Assembly: GCF_045037415.1 (NCBI RefSeq)
Contig: NZ_CP173438.1
DNA: 64,000 nt
Source of the DNA: Escherichia coli
Lineage (GTDB): Bacteria > Pseudomonadota > Gammaproteobacteria > Enterobacterales > Enterobacteriaceae
Direction: 5' to 3' (one strand)
The notes under the pieces are model-generated. The model saw only the letters and a list, made by a program, of their open reading frames with translations, was not told the DNA's origin and did no database searches. Within the stretch, counting starts at the first letter, position 1. The number at the start of each line of letters is the position of its first letter. Below are positions 13,236 to 23,371 of this stretch, piece by piece. Both the position numbers and the translations under genes were made by a program.

Positions 13236-15710
13236 ATGAGACAGGAATGTATACAAGCGGTCCAGCAGGCGGCGCAGCGCACGTTAACGGCGCGAGAAAT
13301 ACAGAACATTGAAGACCGCATTTATCGAAATATGCGCTCCATTGCTCGTGATGACCCGATGTCGTGGAGACAACTTTCCGAATCAGAGCGGCTATATCGT
13401 GCAGCACAATTGGCATCTGAAGAATTACAGCGAGAAGCGGCATTAAAGAAACGTCGTGTGGCCCTCACTATAGCCGCACGTCAGAGATTGGATAAATTTA
13501 TCAATAGCTATCAAGGGGCTGATGGGAAACTTGGCGCTCTTAACCGTACTATTGCTTTTAATGCAGACGGTAAATCGAATTTCCTCTCTGTTGAGTCCAG
13601 AACAAAAGCCACTCGTGATTATGCATTGAGTCAATTGCAAGAGGCATTTGAAGCAGTTGATCCTCGCTTTTTTGGCCTGTTTGAAGATGAAGCTGGCGTG
13701 CGTGACCTGGTATATGAAATGCGAGGGCAAAATACTGGCAATGCTAAAGCAAGAAAAGGTGCTAAGGCGTGGAGAGAAGTTACAGAGCTGCTGCGCCGCC
13801 GGTTTAATGATGCTGGTGGGGACATTGGCTATCTCGAAAACTGGGGGATCCCTCAACATCATTCTATGGAAAAGGTTGGGGCGGTATCAAAGGATAAGTG
13901 GGTTGGCGATGTTATAGGTAAGCTGGATCGCAAATATTATACCCGAGCCGATGGACAACTGATGAACGATGCCGAGTTGTCTGCATTTCTTGGAGAGGCT
14001 TATAACACGATAGCTACTGGTGGGCTGAATAAGCTTACTGATACCGGAATGCGAATTTCCGGCGCACGTGCTAACCGTGGTAATGCATCACGACAGATAC
14101 ATTTCAAAAATGCAGATTCCTATCTCCAATATCAACAACTTTATGGTGATCGCTCTCTATGGGAAATCATGGTCGGTCACCTGGAAGGTATCAGTAAAGA
14201 TATTGCTCTGGTGGAAACATATGGTCCAAACCCCGATCATGTTTTCCGCTCCCTTCTTGATCAGGTGAAGGCAGAAACGGCAACAGCTAACCCGAGTAAA
14301 ACCGGTAAAGTCGAGCGGCTGGCGAACAACACAGAGAATCTGTACAACTTTATTTCCGGAAAGACACAGCCTGTAGCGAATCCGCACATCGCGCGATGGT
14401 CTGACAATATCCGCAACTGGCTGGTTGCCAGCAGACTCGGATCCGCGTTGCTGTCATCGTTCTCTGATCTTGGAACCATGTATCTGTCTGCGAAGGTTAC
14501 CAACCTTCCAATGAACCAGTTATTCCGCAACCAGCTTGAAGCTATGGACCCAACGAACCGTACAGAACTTGCGCGGGCGCGCCGCGCTGGTCTGGCGATG
14601 GAATCTCTACTTGGCAGCGTTAACCGCTGGGCGATGGATAATATGGGGCCGTCTGTGTCTCGTTGGGCTGCAACGGCGGTAATGCGTGCCAGTGGGCTTA
14701 CAGCATGGTCAGATGCGCACAAGCGCGCCTATGGCGTAACCATGATGGGAAGCCTGGGAGAAGTAGTGTCACGGACACCAGACCTTCGTAGCCTCGATGA
14801 TTCTGATTTTCGTATCCTGAAAAGCAAAGGGATTACTGACACAGACTGGAGCGTATGGAAGCTGGCGCAACAGGAGGACTGGGGGAACGGCAATAATACG
14901 ATGCTGACACCGGAAAGCATTATGCGTATCCCTGATTCAGCAGTTAAACATCTTGGTGAGCCTGAACGCGTGAAATTTGAGGCAATGCGTAAACTGCTCG
15001 GTGCCGTAACTGAAGAAGTTGATATGGCTGTTATTACACCGGGAGCACGTGAGCAACTGATAACCGGTTCTGGTATTCAGCGTGGAACATGGAAAGGTGA
15101 ATTAACGAGAAGTGTTTTCCTGTTTAAATCGTTCCCTATCTCGGTGGTTATGCGTCACTGGTCACGCGCTATGGGTATGCCGTCTGCTGGTGGGCGTGCG
15201 GCATATATTGCGACGTTTATTGCCAGTACGACCATTCTTGGCGCTTTGTCGCAGCAACTTAACGACCTTGCGTCTGGTCGTAATCCTCGCGAGATGACAG
15301 GAGAAGATGCTGCTAAATTTTGGCTTGGTGCTCTACTGAAAGGTGGTGGTCTTGGCCTTTACGGTGACTTTTTATTGTCAGATCACACTAGGTACGGAAG
15401 CGGCGCGCTGGCGTCGATGCTTGGCCCGGTAGCTGGTCTGGTTGATGACGTAGTGAAGATTGCTCAGGGCATACCGTTAAATGCTGTGGAAGGGAAGAGT
15501 GAGCAGACTGGTGGTGATCTGGTGAAGCTGGGGAAAGGTTTGATGCCTGGTGCGAATCTCTGGTACTTGAAGGCGGCTCTCGATCACATGATCTTTAACC
15601 AGATGCAGGAGTATTTTTCACCAGGCTATTTGCGTAAAATGGAGCAACGTTCGAAGAAAGAGTTTAACCAGACATACTGGTGGCGACCACAGGATGTCAC
15701 TCCGCAATAA
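13236..15710 (+). CDS. Large internal virion (core/ejection) protein, 824 aa
   Basis: Third large protein of the internal-protein block. Confidence 0.6.
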   Translation: MRQECIQAVQQAAQRTLTAREIQNIEDRIYRNMRSIARDDPMSWRQLSESERLYRAAQLASEELQREAALKKRRVALTIAARQRLDKFINSYQGADGKLGALNRTIAFNADGKSNFLSVESRTKATRDYALSQLQEAFEAVDPRFFGLFEDEAGVRDLVYEMRGQNTGNAKARKGAKAWREVTELLRRRFNDAGGDIGYLENWGIPQHHSMEKVGAVSKDKWVGDVIGKLDRKYYTRADGQLMNDAELSAFLGEAYNTIATGGLNKLTDTGMRISGARANRGNASRQIHFKNADSYLQYQQLYGDRSLWEIMVGHLEGISKDIALVETYGPNPDHVFRSLLDQVKAETATANPSKTGKVERLANNTENLYNFISGKTQPVANPHIARWSDNIRNWLVASRLGSALLSSFSDLGTMYLSAKVTNLPMNQLFRNQLEAMDPTNRTELARARRAGLAMESLLGSVNRWAMDNMGPSVSRWAATAVMRASGLTAWSDAHKRAYGVTMMGSLGEVVSRTPDLRSLDDSDFRILKSKGITDTDWSVWKLAQQEDWGNGNNTMLTPESIMRIPDSAVKHLGEPERVKFEAMRKLLGAVTEEVDMAVITPGAREQLITGSGIQRGTWKGELTRSVFLFKSFPISVVMRHWSRAMGMPSAGGRAAYIATFIASTTILGALSQQLNDLASGRNPREMTGEDAAKFWLGALLKGGGLGLYGDFLLSDHTRYGSGALASMLGPVAGLVDDVVKIAQGIPLNAVEGKSEQTGGDLVKLGKGLMPGANLWYLKAALDHMIFNQMQEYFSPGYLRKMEQRSKKEFNQTYWWRPQDVTPQ

Positions 15711-15721
15711 AAGGAGATATG

Positions 15722-15844
15722 ATGGTTCAAATAACTTTTATTGTACTAATATGTGCAGCGTTTTTATGCTATTCATACATTTTGATAAAAATGGGTTTCA
15801 ATTGGAATCTCTGTTGCGTGCAGCGGCATGGTTCGGCTTTGTAG
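15722..15844 (+). CDS. Possible small hydrophobic protein (40 aa) in AT-rich moron
   Basis: AAGGAG RBS at 15711-15716 with 5-nt spacer to ATG; hydrophobic product; a competing 62-aa ORF (15694-15882) uses another frame. Confidence 0.3.
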   Translation: MVQITFIVLICAAFLCYSYILIKMGFNWNLCCVQRHGSAL

Positions 15845-15929
15845 TATTAGGAATTGTATTGTTCGGAAGAATAATAAAATAACTAGTTAATTTGTGGATT
15901 GGTGCTGTTTTTCCATGATAGGGGTAATT

Positions 15930-16310
15930 ATGAGAAAAGTATTTTTGATTTTTGGATTTATGCTTCTCGTTGGATGCCAGTCAGCTGCACAGTTTGAAAG
16001 AAATATGCTTACGTGGCGCGGGCAGAGTATAGACGCAATGGTTCAGCAGTGGGGGTATCCTCAGGGAGAGCTTACATCTCCAGATGGAAACAGAGTGTAT
16101 GTTTACTCAAGCTCTGGTAGTTATAACGTACCACAAACCACAACGTATAATACTACGTCTAATCTAATTGGTAATACTATATATTCAAACACATACGCAA
16201 CAACTGATGGCGGTTATACACTCCATTTCAGTTGCTCTGTTTACGTTGAGTTTGGTGCTGATAAGATTATTAAAAATGTTACATGGCGCGGTAATAATTG
16301 CGTTGCGTGA
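15930..16310 (+). CDS. Lipoprotein (moron), 126 aa
   Basis: Signal peptide MRKVFLIFGFMLLVGC with lipobox LLVGC; AT-rich context; terminator directly downstream. Confidence 0.7.
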   Translation: MRKVFLIFGFMLLVGCQSAAQFERNMLTWRGQSIDAMVQQWGYPQGELTSPDGNRVYVYSSSGSYNVPQTTTYNTTSNLIGNTIYSNTYATTDGGYTLHFSCSVYVEFGADKIIKNVTWRGNNCVA

Positions 16311-16319
16311 CATGTCACA

Positions 16320-16343
16320 GGCCGCTTTCGCGGCCTTGTTTTT
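16320..16343 (+). terminator. Rho-independent terminator after lipoprotein gene
   Basis: GGCCGC-TTTC-GCGGCC hairpin followed by TTGTTTTT. Confidence 0.7.
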
Positions 16344-16503
16344 AACGAATGCCACCGCCACCCGGGCGGGAATCCGCAGAACGCCCACCGCAGCGGGAGC
16401 CGTCAGCAGCAGTGTCGCTGTCGTGCTGACAACGACCGGCAAAGGCCTGAGTTGAAGCTACCAGAGACAACAAAACGAACAGTGCAGCAAATGCTTTTTT
16501 CAT
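16342..16503 (-). CDS. Possible small secreted peptide (53 aa)
   Basis: Signal-peptide-like N-terminus MKKAFAALFVLLSLVASTQAFA; GC-rich low-complexity mature part with two Cys; weak RBS. Confidence 0.3.
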   Translation of the reverse strand: MKKAFAALFVLLSLVASTQAFAGRCQHDSDTAADGSRCGGRSADSRPGGGGIR

Positions 16504-16601: not shown

Positions 16602-17234
16602 TTAATGCAGTTTATCTTTGCTTATAACCAGTAGTCTGTGGGTATGCACATCTTTATCACTGCCCCAACAGAAATCAGCCCACTGGCTATAGAAATCATC
16701 CCATGATGTCATGAAGCTAAGAGGTCTATCTTCTTCAGAGCCATCTGAAACGTATACATTATATCCTGGGGTGTTTATAGCCCAAGAAATCATTCTTTCC
16801 CAGAATCTTCTCCCATCGATTGTTTGTTGCTCATCAGATACAACGATCGCATATTGCTCTAGGAAGAACTGAAAAAAAATCTGAGGCAAACCATGAACAG
16901 CACGGTCATGAATAACATTAGGCGTACGCCATACCATGATCTGCGTACATGTTCTTTTGGCTTCGACGATATCTTCCCGAAAGATTAACTTAACCGCATA
17001 CACCGTTTCTGGAGTATCGCTGGTAGTAATCATTCTGTAATGATCGCCATTACAAGATTTTACAAGGCGATAACCATAAGGTGTTGTGAATCCCGGAAGA
17101 ACGAAATCAACCACACCTTTCGCTAAGTAGCTTTCGGTGTGACTAGTGTTCTTCTCAGACATGTTCAGTTTTCTATCGAAATCTGCTTCTGGGATAATGT
17201 ATGGCATCGCTTTTCTTGTTGTATTTGTTCTCAT
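16602..17234 (-). CDS. Uncharacterised cargo protein, 210 aa
   Basis: Strong RBS GGGAGG 5 nt before ATG; own sigma70-like promoter and operator upstream; no family recognised; AT-rich. Confidence 0.75.
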   Translation of the reverse strand: MRTNTTRKAMPYIIPEADFDRKLNMSEKNTSHTESYLAKGVVDFVLPGFTTPYGYRLVKSCNGDHYRMITTSDTPETVYAVKLIFREDIVEAKRTCTQIMVWRTPNVIHDRAVHGLPQIFFQFFLEQYAIVVSDEQQTIDGRRFWERMISWAINTPGYNVYVSDGSEEDRPLSFMTSWDDFYSQWADFCWGSDKDVHTHRLLVISKDKLH

Positions 17235-17380: not shown

Positions 17381-18037
17381 TCAGAAGAACCCTGCCTTGT
17401 CGTTGATGTACTCCGCGTGCGTCTGGATATCACGCAGGCATTTGCTCACACCAACGATGTAGCAGAACATGGTGGTCAGCTCCGCCGCCGCGCCCGATAC
17501 GTCGTGCCCGTCGTCCTGTAACTGGTTCAGCAGATTCATCAGCAGTGAGTTCTCCGTCAGGCCGAGAACACCAGACGGCGAGTGAATCAGGCTGCGGTAG
17601 CCGGGCTTCAGTGGGGCACTGTATTCTTTTTTGTCTTCCAGCTTGATCGCCTCCATAATGGCGGGCATGAAGCCTGACAAGACCTTCTCCACTTTTGTTT
17701 CTTGTTGTCTTAAACGTTTCTCGCATTCAATGAAGTAGCGTCGCACCTGGCGACCTTTTTCGTTACGCTCGACCATCGCCAGCTCTTTGGCTGTATCAAG
17801 GGTGAGGTGGTACTCTTTGCGGTTGTGGCCGCCTCTACCAGATGTTTGCTTTCCCAAATTGGAAAGCAAAATATAGTCTTGATTTTCAATGAATTCGTAT
17901 TCTGATATGCGATTTGTAATCCATGCTGCAAACACCTTTTTAACACCTAAAAAAGCGTGCAGATCGCGGGCATTACAAAGTAGGGCTGTTTCGTTAGATA
18001 TAGTGCCGTTGAATACGGGGATGAGTTGAGCGTTCAT
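17381..18037 (-). CDS. Antirepressor-like protein: AntA-type N-terminal domain plus C-terminal domain paralogous to the small SOS-controlled protein
   Basis: GGAG RBS; N-terminal motif [27 protein letters not shown] typical of AntA/AntB antirepressor domains; C-terminal 70 aa about 40% identical to the 18357-18614 product. Confidence 0.65.
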
Positions 18038-18196
18038 GATGGCGTCTCCACTTAGCGAATTACATCACCACCGCTGAGAACCAATCAGATGGTGGTGAAC
18101 TGAACGGAGTTGGTCTTACCGGCCTAAGTGGTACCGGCGTCCTTTCGGACCCCCATTCAGCCCACCATAATTCTGGCATGACTGTGCTATACGCAT

Positions 18197-18218
18197 AAAA
18201 AAACCACGTCTGGCGTGG
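18197..18218 (-). terminator. Putative rho-independent terminator between the small SOS-controlled gene and the antirepressor gene
   Basis: CCACG-N5-CGTGG hairpin followed by seven U on the minus strand; short stem. Confidence 0.4.
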
Positions 18219-18308
18219 TATGCGCCACTTAGTAATCCGGGAGAACCAATCCCGGCACTGGATTTTGCCAGTGCCCGATTACTATGGCACAAGAGGAGTG
18301 CGATGTAA

Positions 18309-22258: not shown

Positions 22259-22877
22259 ACAATTCCAGCGAGCTGCTGGTATTAGCGAGGCTCTGGCCGC
22301 ACGCTGGTTCTCGCATATAACTTCTGCGATGAAAGAGTTTGGTATCAGAAAACCCGAAGATCAGGCAATGTTTATTGCTCAGGTCGGGCATGAGTCTGGT
22401 GGCTTCACCAGGTTGCAGGAGAATTTCAATTACAGCGTCACCGGACTGGCTAACTTCGTTCGTGCCGGTCGTCTTACTCAGGGACAGGCTAACGCATTGG
22501 GTCGTCGTGCAGGCGAGCCACCATTGCCACCTGAGCGCCAGCGTGCGATTGCCAATCTGGTGTACAGCAAACGCATGGGGAACAATGCCTCTGGTGATGG
22601 CTGGAATTACCGTGGCCGCGGACTTATCCAGATTACCGGTTTGAATAACTATCGTGATTGCGGAAACGGCCTGAAAGTGGACCTGCTGGAGAATCCTGAA
22701 CTGTTGGCGCAGGACGAATACGCGGCTCGTAGCGCGGCGTGGTTCTTCTCCAGCAAAGGTTGCATGAAGTATACCGGCGATATTGCACGTGTAACTCTGA
22801 TTATCAATGGTGGCAGGAATGGCATCGACGACCGGCGCGTGCGGTACATCACTGCCAGTAAGGTGCTGGCGGTATGA
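22248..22877 (+). CDS. Endolysin, glycoside hydrolase family 19-like
   Basis: GAGG RBS then ATG at 22248; motif [12 protein letters not shown] and [12 protein letters not shown] typical of GH19 lysozymes; ORF track start at 22017 is an in-frame upstream extension. Confidence 0.75.
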
Positions 22878-23371
22878 TCTGGGCATTCGCAAAAGCATAC
22901 CGGAAACAGTTGGTTGTCATGGCGATGCTTGCTGTTCTGGTCATATCAGGAGTTGTTGCCTGGAATGTGCATGGCAGCCGCCAGTACGATGCCGGGTATG
23001 CTCAGGCGAAGGAAGATCAGAAACAGGCTGATGATAAGTTAAGGTCACAGCGTGAGCAGGAGAAAACACAAATTGAACGTGAAGCACAATCCCGTATCGA
23101 TGCGGCGCGTGCTGATGCTGAGTATGCTAATTCCGCTGCTGACAGCATGCGCGCCGAGCTTGACAAAACCAGGCGGCTCGCCGAACACTATACCGGATCT
23201 TTCCCCCCTGGCACGCCAGCCAGCAAGGTCATCGGTGTGCTCGCCGACATGCTTGAAGAAAGCAACCGAGTTTACAACGCAACAGCAGCTGAGGCTGAAA
23301 AGTATCGTATCGCAGGGGAATTCTGCGAGCAGCAATACGATTCACTGAAGAAGCAAAAATCGTGGCACTGA
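22874..23371 (+). CDS. Rz-like i-spanin
   Basis: ATGA overlap with endolysin; N-terminal TM segment then charged coiled-coil region. Confidence 0.65.
23100..23348 (+). CDS. Rz1-like o-spanin lipoprotein embedded in the Rz gene (+1 frame)
   Basis: Lipobox LLTAC followed by a Pro-rich sequence; fully embedded in the spanin gene; start codon uncertain. Confidence 0.5.
   Translation: MRRVLMLSMLIPLLTACAPSLTKPGGSPNTIPDLSPLARQPARSSVCSPTCLKKATEFTTQQQLRLKSIVSQGNSASSNTIH

Follow-up and report, generated by a model that had tools for sequence, protein, structure and literature searches.

A constrained accessory lipoprotein gene behind the ejection genes of an Escherichia coli Uetakevirus prophage, and its possible role in superinfection exclusion

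The question raised by positions 15711-16345 of the Escherichia coli chromosome segment analysed here (64 kb, hereafter the window) is what a 126-amino acid (aa) lipoprotein, encoded behind the last ejection gene of a resident prophage, might do for the phage or for its host. The prophage is a Uetakevirus, an epsilon15/phiV10-like podovirus, and the region is 100% identical to the corresponding sequence of strain Ec55 and 99.6% identical to that of phage vB_EcoP_ZX5. The prophage genes run from those for portal, capsid and tail, through ejection proteins of 154, 179, 837, 600 and 824 aa, to the slot containing the lipoprotein gene. Three genes on the opposite strand come next: one for a secreted peptide of 53 aa, one for a protein of 210 aa, and the antirepressor gene, which C4/isrK RNAs precede. 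They are followed by the tailspike gene, the lysis cassette and the host gene yfgI. An earlier note, made from the sequence alone, had described the region as an AT-rich 'moron' and suggested that the lipoprotein was a superinfection-exclusion factor. The comparisons below establish that the gene is real, constrained and accessory, and make exclusion the tentatively preferred account of its function.

The slot and its lipoprotein gene

The region is a variable slot at the 3' end of the ejection-protein operon. The cassette seen in the window is present in 33 of 5,426 complete E. coli genomes, all copies being at least 99% identical and retaining an intact lipoprotein open reading frame (ORF). 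Despite having near-identical 824-aa genes and common flanks, phages phiV10 and phiv142-3 lack the lipoprotein, as do most Uetakeviruses; the gene is an accessory one, dispensable for the phage. The slot of phiV10 holds only a 46-aa two-helix membrane protein (phiV10p21), while that of phiv142-3 and the FORC_031 prophage encodes a 57-aa two-helix protein together with a 98-aa polytopic membrane protein. In prophages of Raoultella and another enterobacterium, a gene for a two-helix protein of 99-109 aa overlaps the lipoprotein gene by 4 nt. Every slot filling examined is a small envelope protein.

The right edge of the slot is marked by a perfect 12-bp palindrome, GTGACATGTCAC, which includes the lipoprotein stop codon and occurs only once in the window. 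It recurs behind each of the dissimilar cassettes found in phiV10, phiv142-3, Salmonella and Klebsiella, and could be a site of recombination or of protein binding. The two slot edges also have in common a 7-nt direct repeat, ATGTCAC, whose left copy is not conserved in Salmonella; a role as recombination signal was rejected for that reason. The palindrome is followed by an intrinsic terminator that closes the ejection-gene transcription unit and also serves the convergent 53-aa gene. This had been taken for the lipoprotein gene's own terminator, a description now in doubt, as the identical element, annotated as a terminator in phiV10, closes the slot there in the absence of the lipoprotein; the terminator flank matches several hundred E. 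coli genomes.

The lipoprotein gene itself, including the lipobox that had been read from the sequence, was found as described. The protein starts with MRKVFLIFGFMLLVG followed by C16, comprising an MRK n-region and the hydrophobic core VFLIFGFMLL. The lipobox cysteine is kept in at least 90% of 76 diverse homologues, and the +2 residue, glutamine here, is glutamine or alanine in homologues. In E. coli, the Lol avoidance rule sends to the outer membrane those lipoproteins that lack aspartate at +2, and the lipobox followed by glutamine therefore predicts outer-membrane anchoring with the protein facing the periplasm. Three residues, C102, G121 and C124, are invariant among the 76 homologues, and the lipobox cysteine, a WG(Y/P)P motif and a GN motif are nearly so; C102 and C124 probably form a disulfide. 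The ratio of nonsynonymous to synonymous substitution rates (dN/dS) in pairwise comparisons is 0.05-0.13 where dS is unsaturated. This is a real and constrained gene, under purifying selection.

The family is large and almost devoid of annotation. Its 37 close relatives come from Escherichia, Shigella, Salmonella, Klebsiella, Enterobacter, Citrobacter and Raoultella, and a library of 1.84 billion proteins yielded 1,048 cluster representatives at E <= 1e-3, while phage records matching the lipoprotein amount to four relatives only. The protein matches phrog_3716 (5e-64), a PHROG of no assigned function. It was not recognised by NCBIfam and matched no PADLOC model at E <= 0.1, and Pfam gave no family match for the query or the 76 homologues beyond a weak LPAM_1 match in one of them. 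Two leads were discarded. The multi-repeat matches P0127 and P0162, with 10-12 stretches, are YVTN-type beta-propeller repeats that have the motif 'SPDGxxVYV' in common and are spurious as to function, and a spanin role is ruled out because the gene lies 6.5 kb from the lysis cassette, its product is globular and a separate embedded o-spanin was found.

The AlphaFold2 model (pLDDT 84) consists of a signal-peptide helix followed by two helices and six strands. The mature domain is modelled as a BamE/BLIP-like core of two helices and a beta-sheet, with long hairpins rich in threonine, serine, asparagine and tyrosine. Fold matches were obtained with the N-terminal domain of the Bacillus SCP protein 4ifa (score 9.2), YjgB/DUF4309 (7.5), a BLIP-like protein (7.2), BamE (7.0), the type VI secretion system (T6SS) immunity protein BtiO (6.9) and OsmE (6.5), all at the level of a generic small alpha/beta domain with about 10-20% identity. 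Beside BamE/OmlA/OsmE (SmpA_OmlA, PF04355), the wider BLIP-like fold takes in CAP_assoc_N (PF14504) and DUF4309, and to judge from the fold search this BLIP/BamE fold recurs often among inhibitor and immunity proteins of the periplasm. Searched against PDB sequences, the family profile matched only 4h0a, weakly, in its CAP-associated N-terminal domain (E = 3.9e-5); structural neighbours in AFDB50 and BFVD are all uncharacterised lipoproteins. The BamE/SmpA-like pattern previously suspected in the mature protein is thus borne out by structure prediction as a likeness of fold, the alpha-alpha-beta-beta-beta arrangement of BamE being present in the model, but not as family membership. BamE lacks the four extra long beta-strands (residues 55-108) and the conserved cysteine pair of the lipoprotein, PF04355 matched neither the query nor any of the 76 homologues, and hhalign against an E. 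coli BamE sequence aligned the signal peptide alone, with a probability of 6.6%.

The distribution of the family shows how strongly, and how incompletely, it is tied to ejection genes. Scanning the viral contigs of IMG/VR with the family alignment returned 34 loci, of which 25 have the lipoprotein gene directly after the last ejection gene. At three more, on high-GC contigs encoding proteins of 30-39% identity with the lipobox LSGC, it is tightly packed between the 600-like and 824-like genes on the same strand, while the other six have it elsewhere, beside a DNA methyltransferase and a PAPS-reductase-like gene. Burkholderia phage vB_E332 has a homologue of 28% identity immediately next to its last ejection gene, on the opposite strand. 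This attachment of the family to the ejection-gene cluster of epsilon15-like phages is striking and was previously unremarked. The lipoprotein gene also moves between unrelated phage backbones: the E. coli and Klebsiella lipoproteins are 79% identical, as against only 28-31% for the adjacent ejection proteins. In Salmonella the family is very common, one variant being indexed in 930 blocks of an assembly collection. In the Klebsiella prophage, 142 nt separate the lipoprotein gene from the last ejection gene, and this spacer has a 39-aa hydrophobic ORF (MKSKMITFFLRLTVLAVFILALNIVIYGIPRIFGMPWIN) on its opposite strand (locus L008, 5855-5974, minus strand); it is possibly a small membrane peptide or toxin-like gene.

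Outside phages, family members are carried by integrase-bearing islands and, according to their UniProt naming, by integron cassettes. Plasmids of the ColE1/Rop type, 3.2 kb in size and found in E. coli and Klebsiella, carry a 36% identical homologue as their main cargo. The plasmid and island homologues imply that the function of the lipoprotein is self-contained. Furthermore, identical lipoproteins are found with different tailspikes, which indicates that this function is not tied to the O-antigen receptor and rules out receptor or O-antigen specificity as an explanation.

The composition of the region drops after the 824-aa gene much as had been reported, GC content falling from about 50% to 33-40%: it is 49.5% and 51.2% in the two upstream core genes, as against 33.3% over 15711-15929 and 40.2% in the lipoprotein gene. 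The same deficit, however, is found wherever the family occurs. Its genes have a GC content of about 40% in phages of 50-59%, 55-57% in those of 61-66% and 32% in those of 37-40%, so that in phages of 37%, 50-56% and 61-65% GC alike the gene lies 7-13 points under its flanks. AT-richness is therefore a family trait rather than a sign of recent import, and the argument that the gene is AT-rich and hence recently foreign loses its force; the low GC fits the threonine-, serine-, asparagine- and tyrosine-rich composition of the protein.

Nor is an independent transcription unit demonstrable. A consensus scan of 15724-15930 found no sigma-70-like promoter, with counts not above those in shuffled sequence, non-consensus promoters being possible, and nothing above chance was found upstream of the lipoprotein gene in the Klebsiella copy. 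In Salmonella, Shigella and metagenomic relatives, the gene begins 10 nt past the 824-aa stop codon. As the terminator is common to all slot variants, the lipoprotein gene is not demonstrably an independent transcription unit, as a strict 'moron' would be. The term applies only in a loose sense: accessory presence or absence at a fixed junction is observed and no promoter was detected, while the shared terminator and the family-wide low GC are ambiguous on this point.

What the lipoprotein may do

The interpretation tentatively favoured here, to which we give somewhat less than an even chance, is that the protein is a periplasm-facing exclusion lipoprotein that neutralises the delivery apparatus of an incoming phage, or the host partner of that apparatus. 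With no terminator or detectable promoter between the 824-aa and lipoprotein genes, the lipoprotein gene is presumably transcribed at least with the late ejection operon; being Sec-exported and lipid-anchored, the protein cannot enter the capsid, and so could act only in the envelope of the producing cell. There it would bind and neutralise something that reaches the periplasm from outside. The target might be the apparatus with which a superinfecting short-tailed phage carries its DNA across the periplasm, its 837-aa cell-wall-degrading component being one example, or alternatively an outer-membrane partner on which that apparatus depends. The outcome would be superinfection exclusion, and the same activity could spare released progeny from losing their DNA to envelope debris. 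The candidate target is itself a prediction from sequence: the 837-aa ejection protein matches phrog_1044/873 ('endolysin') and phrog_7182 ('tail injection transglycosylase'), and is the putative muralytic component of the ejection set. Counted in support of exclusion are the constraint on the gene, its accessory status, its place in a slot of envelope proteins, the linkage to ejection genes, a position like that of sieA in phage P22, and the stand-alone mobility of the family. There is also a precedent, in that lipoprotein genes within the structural cluster of the temperate mEpimmI coliphages exclude phages when expressed alone (PMC11893012).

Several observations weigh against this interpretation. 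No sequence or structural likeness to Cor, Llp, SieA or annotated exclusion and defence families emerged from PHROG, NCBIfam, PADLOC or fold searches, and the literature contained no mention of the family, its accession or Uetakevirus lipoproteins. No promoter was found that would express the gene in a repressed prophage, and exclusion that operated only late in infection would bring little benefit. The better conservation of the lipoprotein (79%) than of the adjoining ejection proteins (28%) disfavours a tight, co-evolving interaction between them, and six of the 34 viral loci, as well as the plasmids, carry the lipoprotein without ejection genes. The analogy with P22 is imperfect too, as sieA lies on the opposite strand, with its own promoter and an inner-membrane product.

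The same evidence bears on the alternatives. Were the protein a host-fitness or virulence factor, acting through lysogenic conversion like lambda Bor/Iss (serum resistance) or as a stress lipoprotein like OsmE, its presence on plasmids, islands and integron cassettes (the last by UniProt name) would be readily understood, as would E. coli carriers that include the extraintestinal pathogens APEC O1, IAI39 and CE10. We consider this unlikely, because lysogeny by ZX5, which has the identical cassette, left growth, biofilm formation, stress response, serum and antibiotic sensitivity, HeLa adhesion and virulence unchanged (PMC9782041). Moreover, no promoter for expression in the prophage state was detected, and the linkage to ejection genes, seen at 28 of the 34 viral loci, would be left unexplained. 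That linkage would likewise have to be a coincidence, recurring in distantly related phages, if the protein were an orphan immunity protein or inhibitor that phages carry as cargo and whose target is a periplasmic toxin of non-phage origin, such as a bacteriocin, a lysozyme or a cell-wall effector of the T6SS. This is a distinctly unlikely explanation: single-gene carriage on many kinds of mobile element agrees with it, but no effector or toxin gene stands beside any homologue examined, and the fold matches that might recall immunity proteins are those of a generic domain.

The lipoprotein might also be a lytic-cycle helper, made only late with the ejection proteins and conditioning the envelope for lysis or egress. 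It shares a transcription unit with late genes, has no promoter, follows the preceding gene after only 10 nt in most relatives and is embedded between two ejection genes in three contigs. A helper of this kind is nevertheless improbable: the gene is dispensable, phiV10, phiv142-3 and most other Uetakeviruses being without it, the lysis cassette lacks no component, and there is no phage that the homologues carried by 3-kb plasmids or non-phage islands could assist. Finally, the cassette might be the decaying, non-functional remnant of a foreign insertion, as its low GC and the frameshift in the adjoining small ORF, with a further 26-nt deletion in one metagenomic copy, could suggest. For the lipoprotein gene this is refuted, and the likelihood of such decay, possible for the small ORF only, is very slight overall: the lipoprotein ORF is intact in all copies, with the dN/dS values given above, obtained in part where dS approaches or reaches saturation, the lipobox and both cysteines are conserved across the 76 homologues, and the structure model is confident.

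The small reading frame and the surroundings of the slot

Between the 824-aa and lipoprotein genes of the window lies the 40-aa hydrophobic ORF with a consensus AAGGAG ribosome-binding site that the earlier note had pointed out, and which is present as described (Table 1). With this ideal ribosome-binding site, translation is expected to begin at 15722, and the product has helix 1 only. Its positional homologues are phiV10p21, with 46 aa and two transmembrane helices, and the 57-aa ORF of phiv142-3 and FORC_031, and to judge from the sequence it is the first half of a frameshifted two-helix membrane protein. The second helix (AAAWFGFVVLGIVLFG) is encoded in the -1 frame and is homologous to helix 2 of the 57-aa protein of phiv142-3 (WFIFVVQGVVL; common pattern WFxFVVxGxVL). 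Upstream of this segment lies an in-frame G_GGT_TTC heptamer, followed at a distance of 5 nt by a hairpin. A -1 shift at the heptamer would give a 53-aa two-helix protein resembling the intact phiv142-3 homologue. The folding energy of 15801-15900 is -23.7 kcal/mol (z = -2.2), and the chance of an X_XXY_YYZ heptamer in a 40-codon ORF is, by our own estimate, roughly 15%.

All 33 E. coli copies of the small ORF have the same length, are at least 99% identical and keep the frameshifted state, although the near-identity of these copies means that the kept frame carries no weight. In metagenome contig ERZ28579977 (locus L032, 4001-4135), a 26-nt deletion joins the start codon to helix 2, giving a 44-aa product; the deletion reflects either a decaying small gene or an error of assembly. 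A fixed frameshift mutation, making the small ORF a pseudogene, is a simpler reading than programmed frameshifting, and programmed -1 frameshifting at G_GGU_UUC, yielding both a one-helix and a two-helix membrane protein, appears highly improbable.

Table 1. Coordinates of features in and around the variable slot, with one plasmid homologue of the lipoprotein for comparison
Feature	Position	Strand	Details
Last ejection (internal virion) protein gene, 824 aa	13236-15710	+	ORF, TAA stop at 15710; left border of variable slot
AAGGAG ribosome-binding site	15711-15716	+	5 nt before ATG at 15722
40-aa hydrophobic ORF (MVQITFIVLICAAFLCYSYILIKMGFNWNLCCVQRHGSAL)	15722-15844	+	First transmembrane helix; from ORF list
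Heptamer G_GGT_TTC and hairpin	15793-15834	+	Heptamer 15793-15799, 5 nt, 11-bp hairpin 15805-15834; read from sequence
Second-helix segment in -1 frame (QLESLLRAAAWFGFVVLGIVLFGRIIK)	15800-15882	+	Within 62-aa ORF 15694-15882
Lipoprotein gene, 126 aa	15930-16310	+	Signal peptide residues 1-15, lipobox L-V-G-C16, Gln at +2
12-bp palindrome	16307-16318		0 expected by chance
Intrinsic terminator	16319-16345	+	AGGCCGC-TTTC-GCGGCCT then TGTTTTT; 7-bp GC-rich hairpin 16319-16336
53-aa protein gene	16345-16503	-	Signal peptide (MKKAFAALFVLLSLVASTQAFA, then GRCQHDSD...); convergent with lipoprotein gene; phrog_14503 match
210-aa protein gene	16602-17234	-	phrog_1349; between 53-aa gene and ant
Antirepressor gene (ant)	17381-18037	-	Just downstream of C4/isrK RNAs
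C4 antisense RNA	18088-18172	-	Rfam, 61 bits
isrK	18197-18274	-	Rfam, 61 bits
c4 a1b1 target element	18234-18287	-	Rfam, 36 bits, under its gathering score
o-spanin, Rz1-type	23052-23348	+	Proline-rich, lipobox LLTAC; out of frame inside DUF2514 i-spanin gene 22874-23371
Lipoprotein homologue of plasmid p64EVA-1 (NZ_CP138400.1; 3,167 bp)	L068 2391-3138		130-aa lipoprotein preceded by 70-aa soluble protein

The gene bordering the slot on the left encodes a protein that matches phrog_684, 'virion structural protein' (E = 0), and is 94% identical in the Salmonella and Shigella prophages carrying the lipoprotein. In one otherwise identical prophage (L040, IMGVR_UViG_643348547_000010), the homologue of this gene is about 4.5 kb long instead of 2.5 kb, extending from about 4.7 to 0.2 kb upstream of the lipoprotein gene, which suggests an insertion in the ejection gene.

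On the other side, the 53-aa protein belongs to a PHROG described as 'membrane associated protein' and placed in the moron category, and its gene, which has the terminator in common with the lipoprotein gene, holds the same place in phiv142-3, in TL-2011b and in three further E. coli prophages that were inspected. Lying on the anti-late strand like sieA of P22, it is itself a candidate for a factor expressed from the prophage. The 210-aa protein has no match in NCBIfam or PADLOC; in sister phages its position is taken by a YafO-family toxin (TL-2011b) or a DUF2335 protein (Salmonella), marking a second variable cargo site. The RNAs at 18088-18287 constitute a P1/P7-type immI RNA switch controlling Ant in this Uetakevirus prophage. 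Within 15711-16345 itself there is no Rfam match, and the only repeats are short matches at chance level. The lysis cassette comprises two holins, a GH19 endolysin, an i-spanin and the embedded o-spanin.

Comparison with known exclusion systems

The small phage lipoproteins known to act in exclusion, namely the receptor-blocking Llp of T5 and Cor of phi80, N15 and HK022, and Lpp021 and Lpp010 of mEpimmI, resemble the present protein in their classical lipobox and in the location of their genes within or next to those for structural proteins. A preprint (bioRxiv 10.64898/2026.03.26.714494) describes Llp as binding FhuA from the outer membrane's inner leaflet. No homology to Cor or Llp was found: phrog_3716 was the sole PHROG match, and neither Cor nor Llp appeared among the fold-search results. 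With respect to the proposed target, a functional analogy might be drawn with Spackle (Sp) of T4, the putative muralytic 837-aa protein standing in for the tail lysozyme. Spackle is a periplasmic inhibitor of the tail lysozyme gp5 of an incoming phage, although it is a soluble protein and comes from a virulent myovirus.

The closest parallel in position is provided by P22, in which ejection genes 7, 20 and 16 are followed by sieA, by immI with ant, and by the tailspike gene, an order matched by the prophage in the window. SieA is, like the lipoprotein, an envelope protein of a temperate short-tailed phage, and it acts on the conduit built by the ejection proteins and so stops DNA from being delivered (PMC10883804). 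The two proteins share no homology. SieA is polytopic and resides in the inner membrane, its gene having the strand and promoter already mentioned, whereas the lipoprotein is predicted to be anchored in the outer membrane and is encoded on the late strand, with no promoter detected. If the lipoprotein does act in exclusion, it would be a transferable envelope defence encoded by a single gene, one that might restrict phage therapy and phage typing of E. coli, Salmonella and Klebsiella, in a family without a curated profile in Pfam or NCBIfam despite its more than 1,000 cluster representatives. It would also open up to study the periplasmic step in podovirus DNA delivery, which is poorly understood. 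To our knowledge, P22 SieA is the only case among temperate short-tailed phages in which post-adsorption exclusion is known in molecular detail. The further proposal, which we regard as doubtful, is that the family constitutes a new class of single-gene protection, a cassette carried by prophages, ColE1-type plasmids and integrons and encoding an outer-membrane-anchored, BamE-fold inhibitor of the DNA-delivery conduit or muralytic ejection protein of short-tailed phages; it would then be the first outer-membrane counterpart of SieA.

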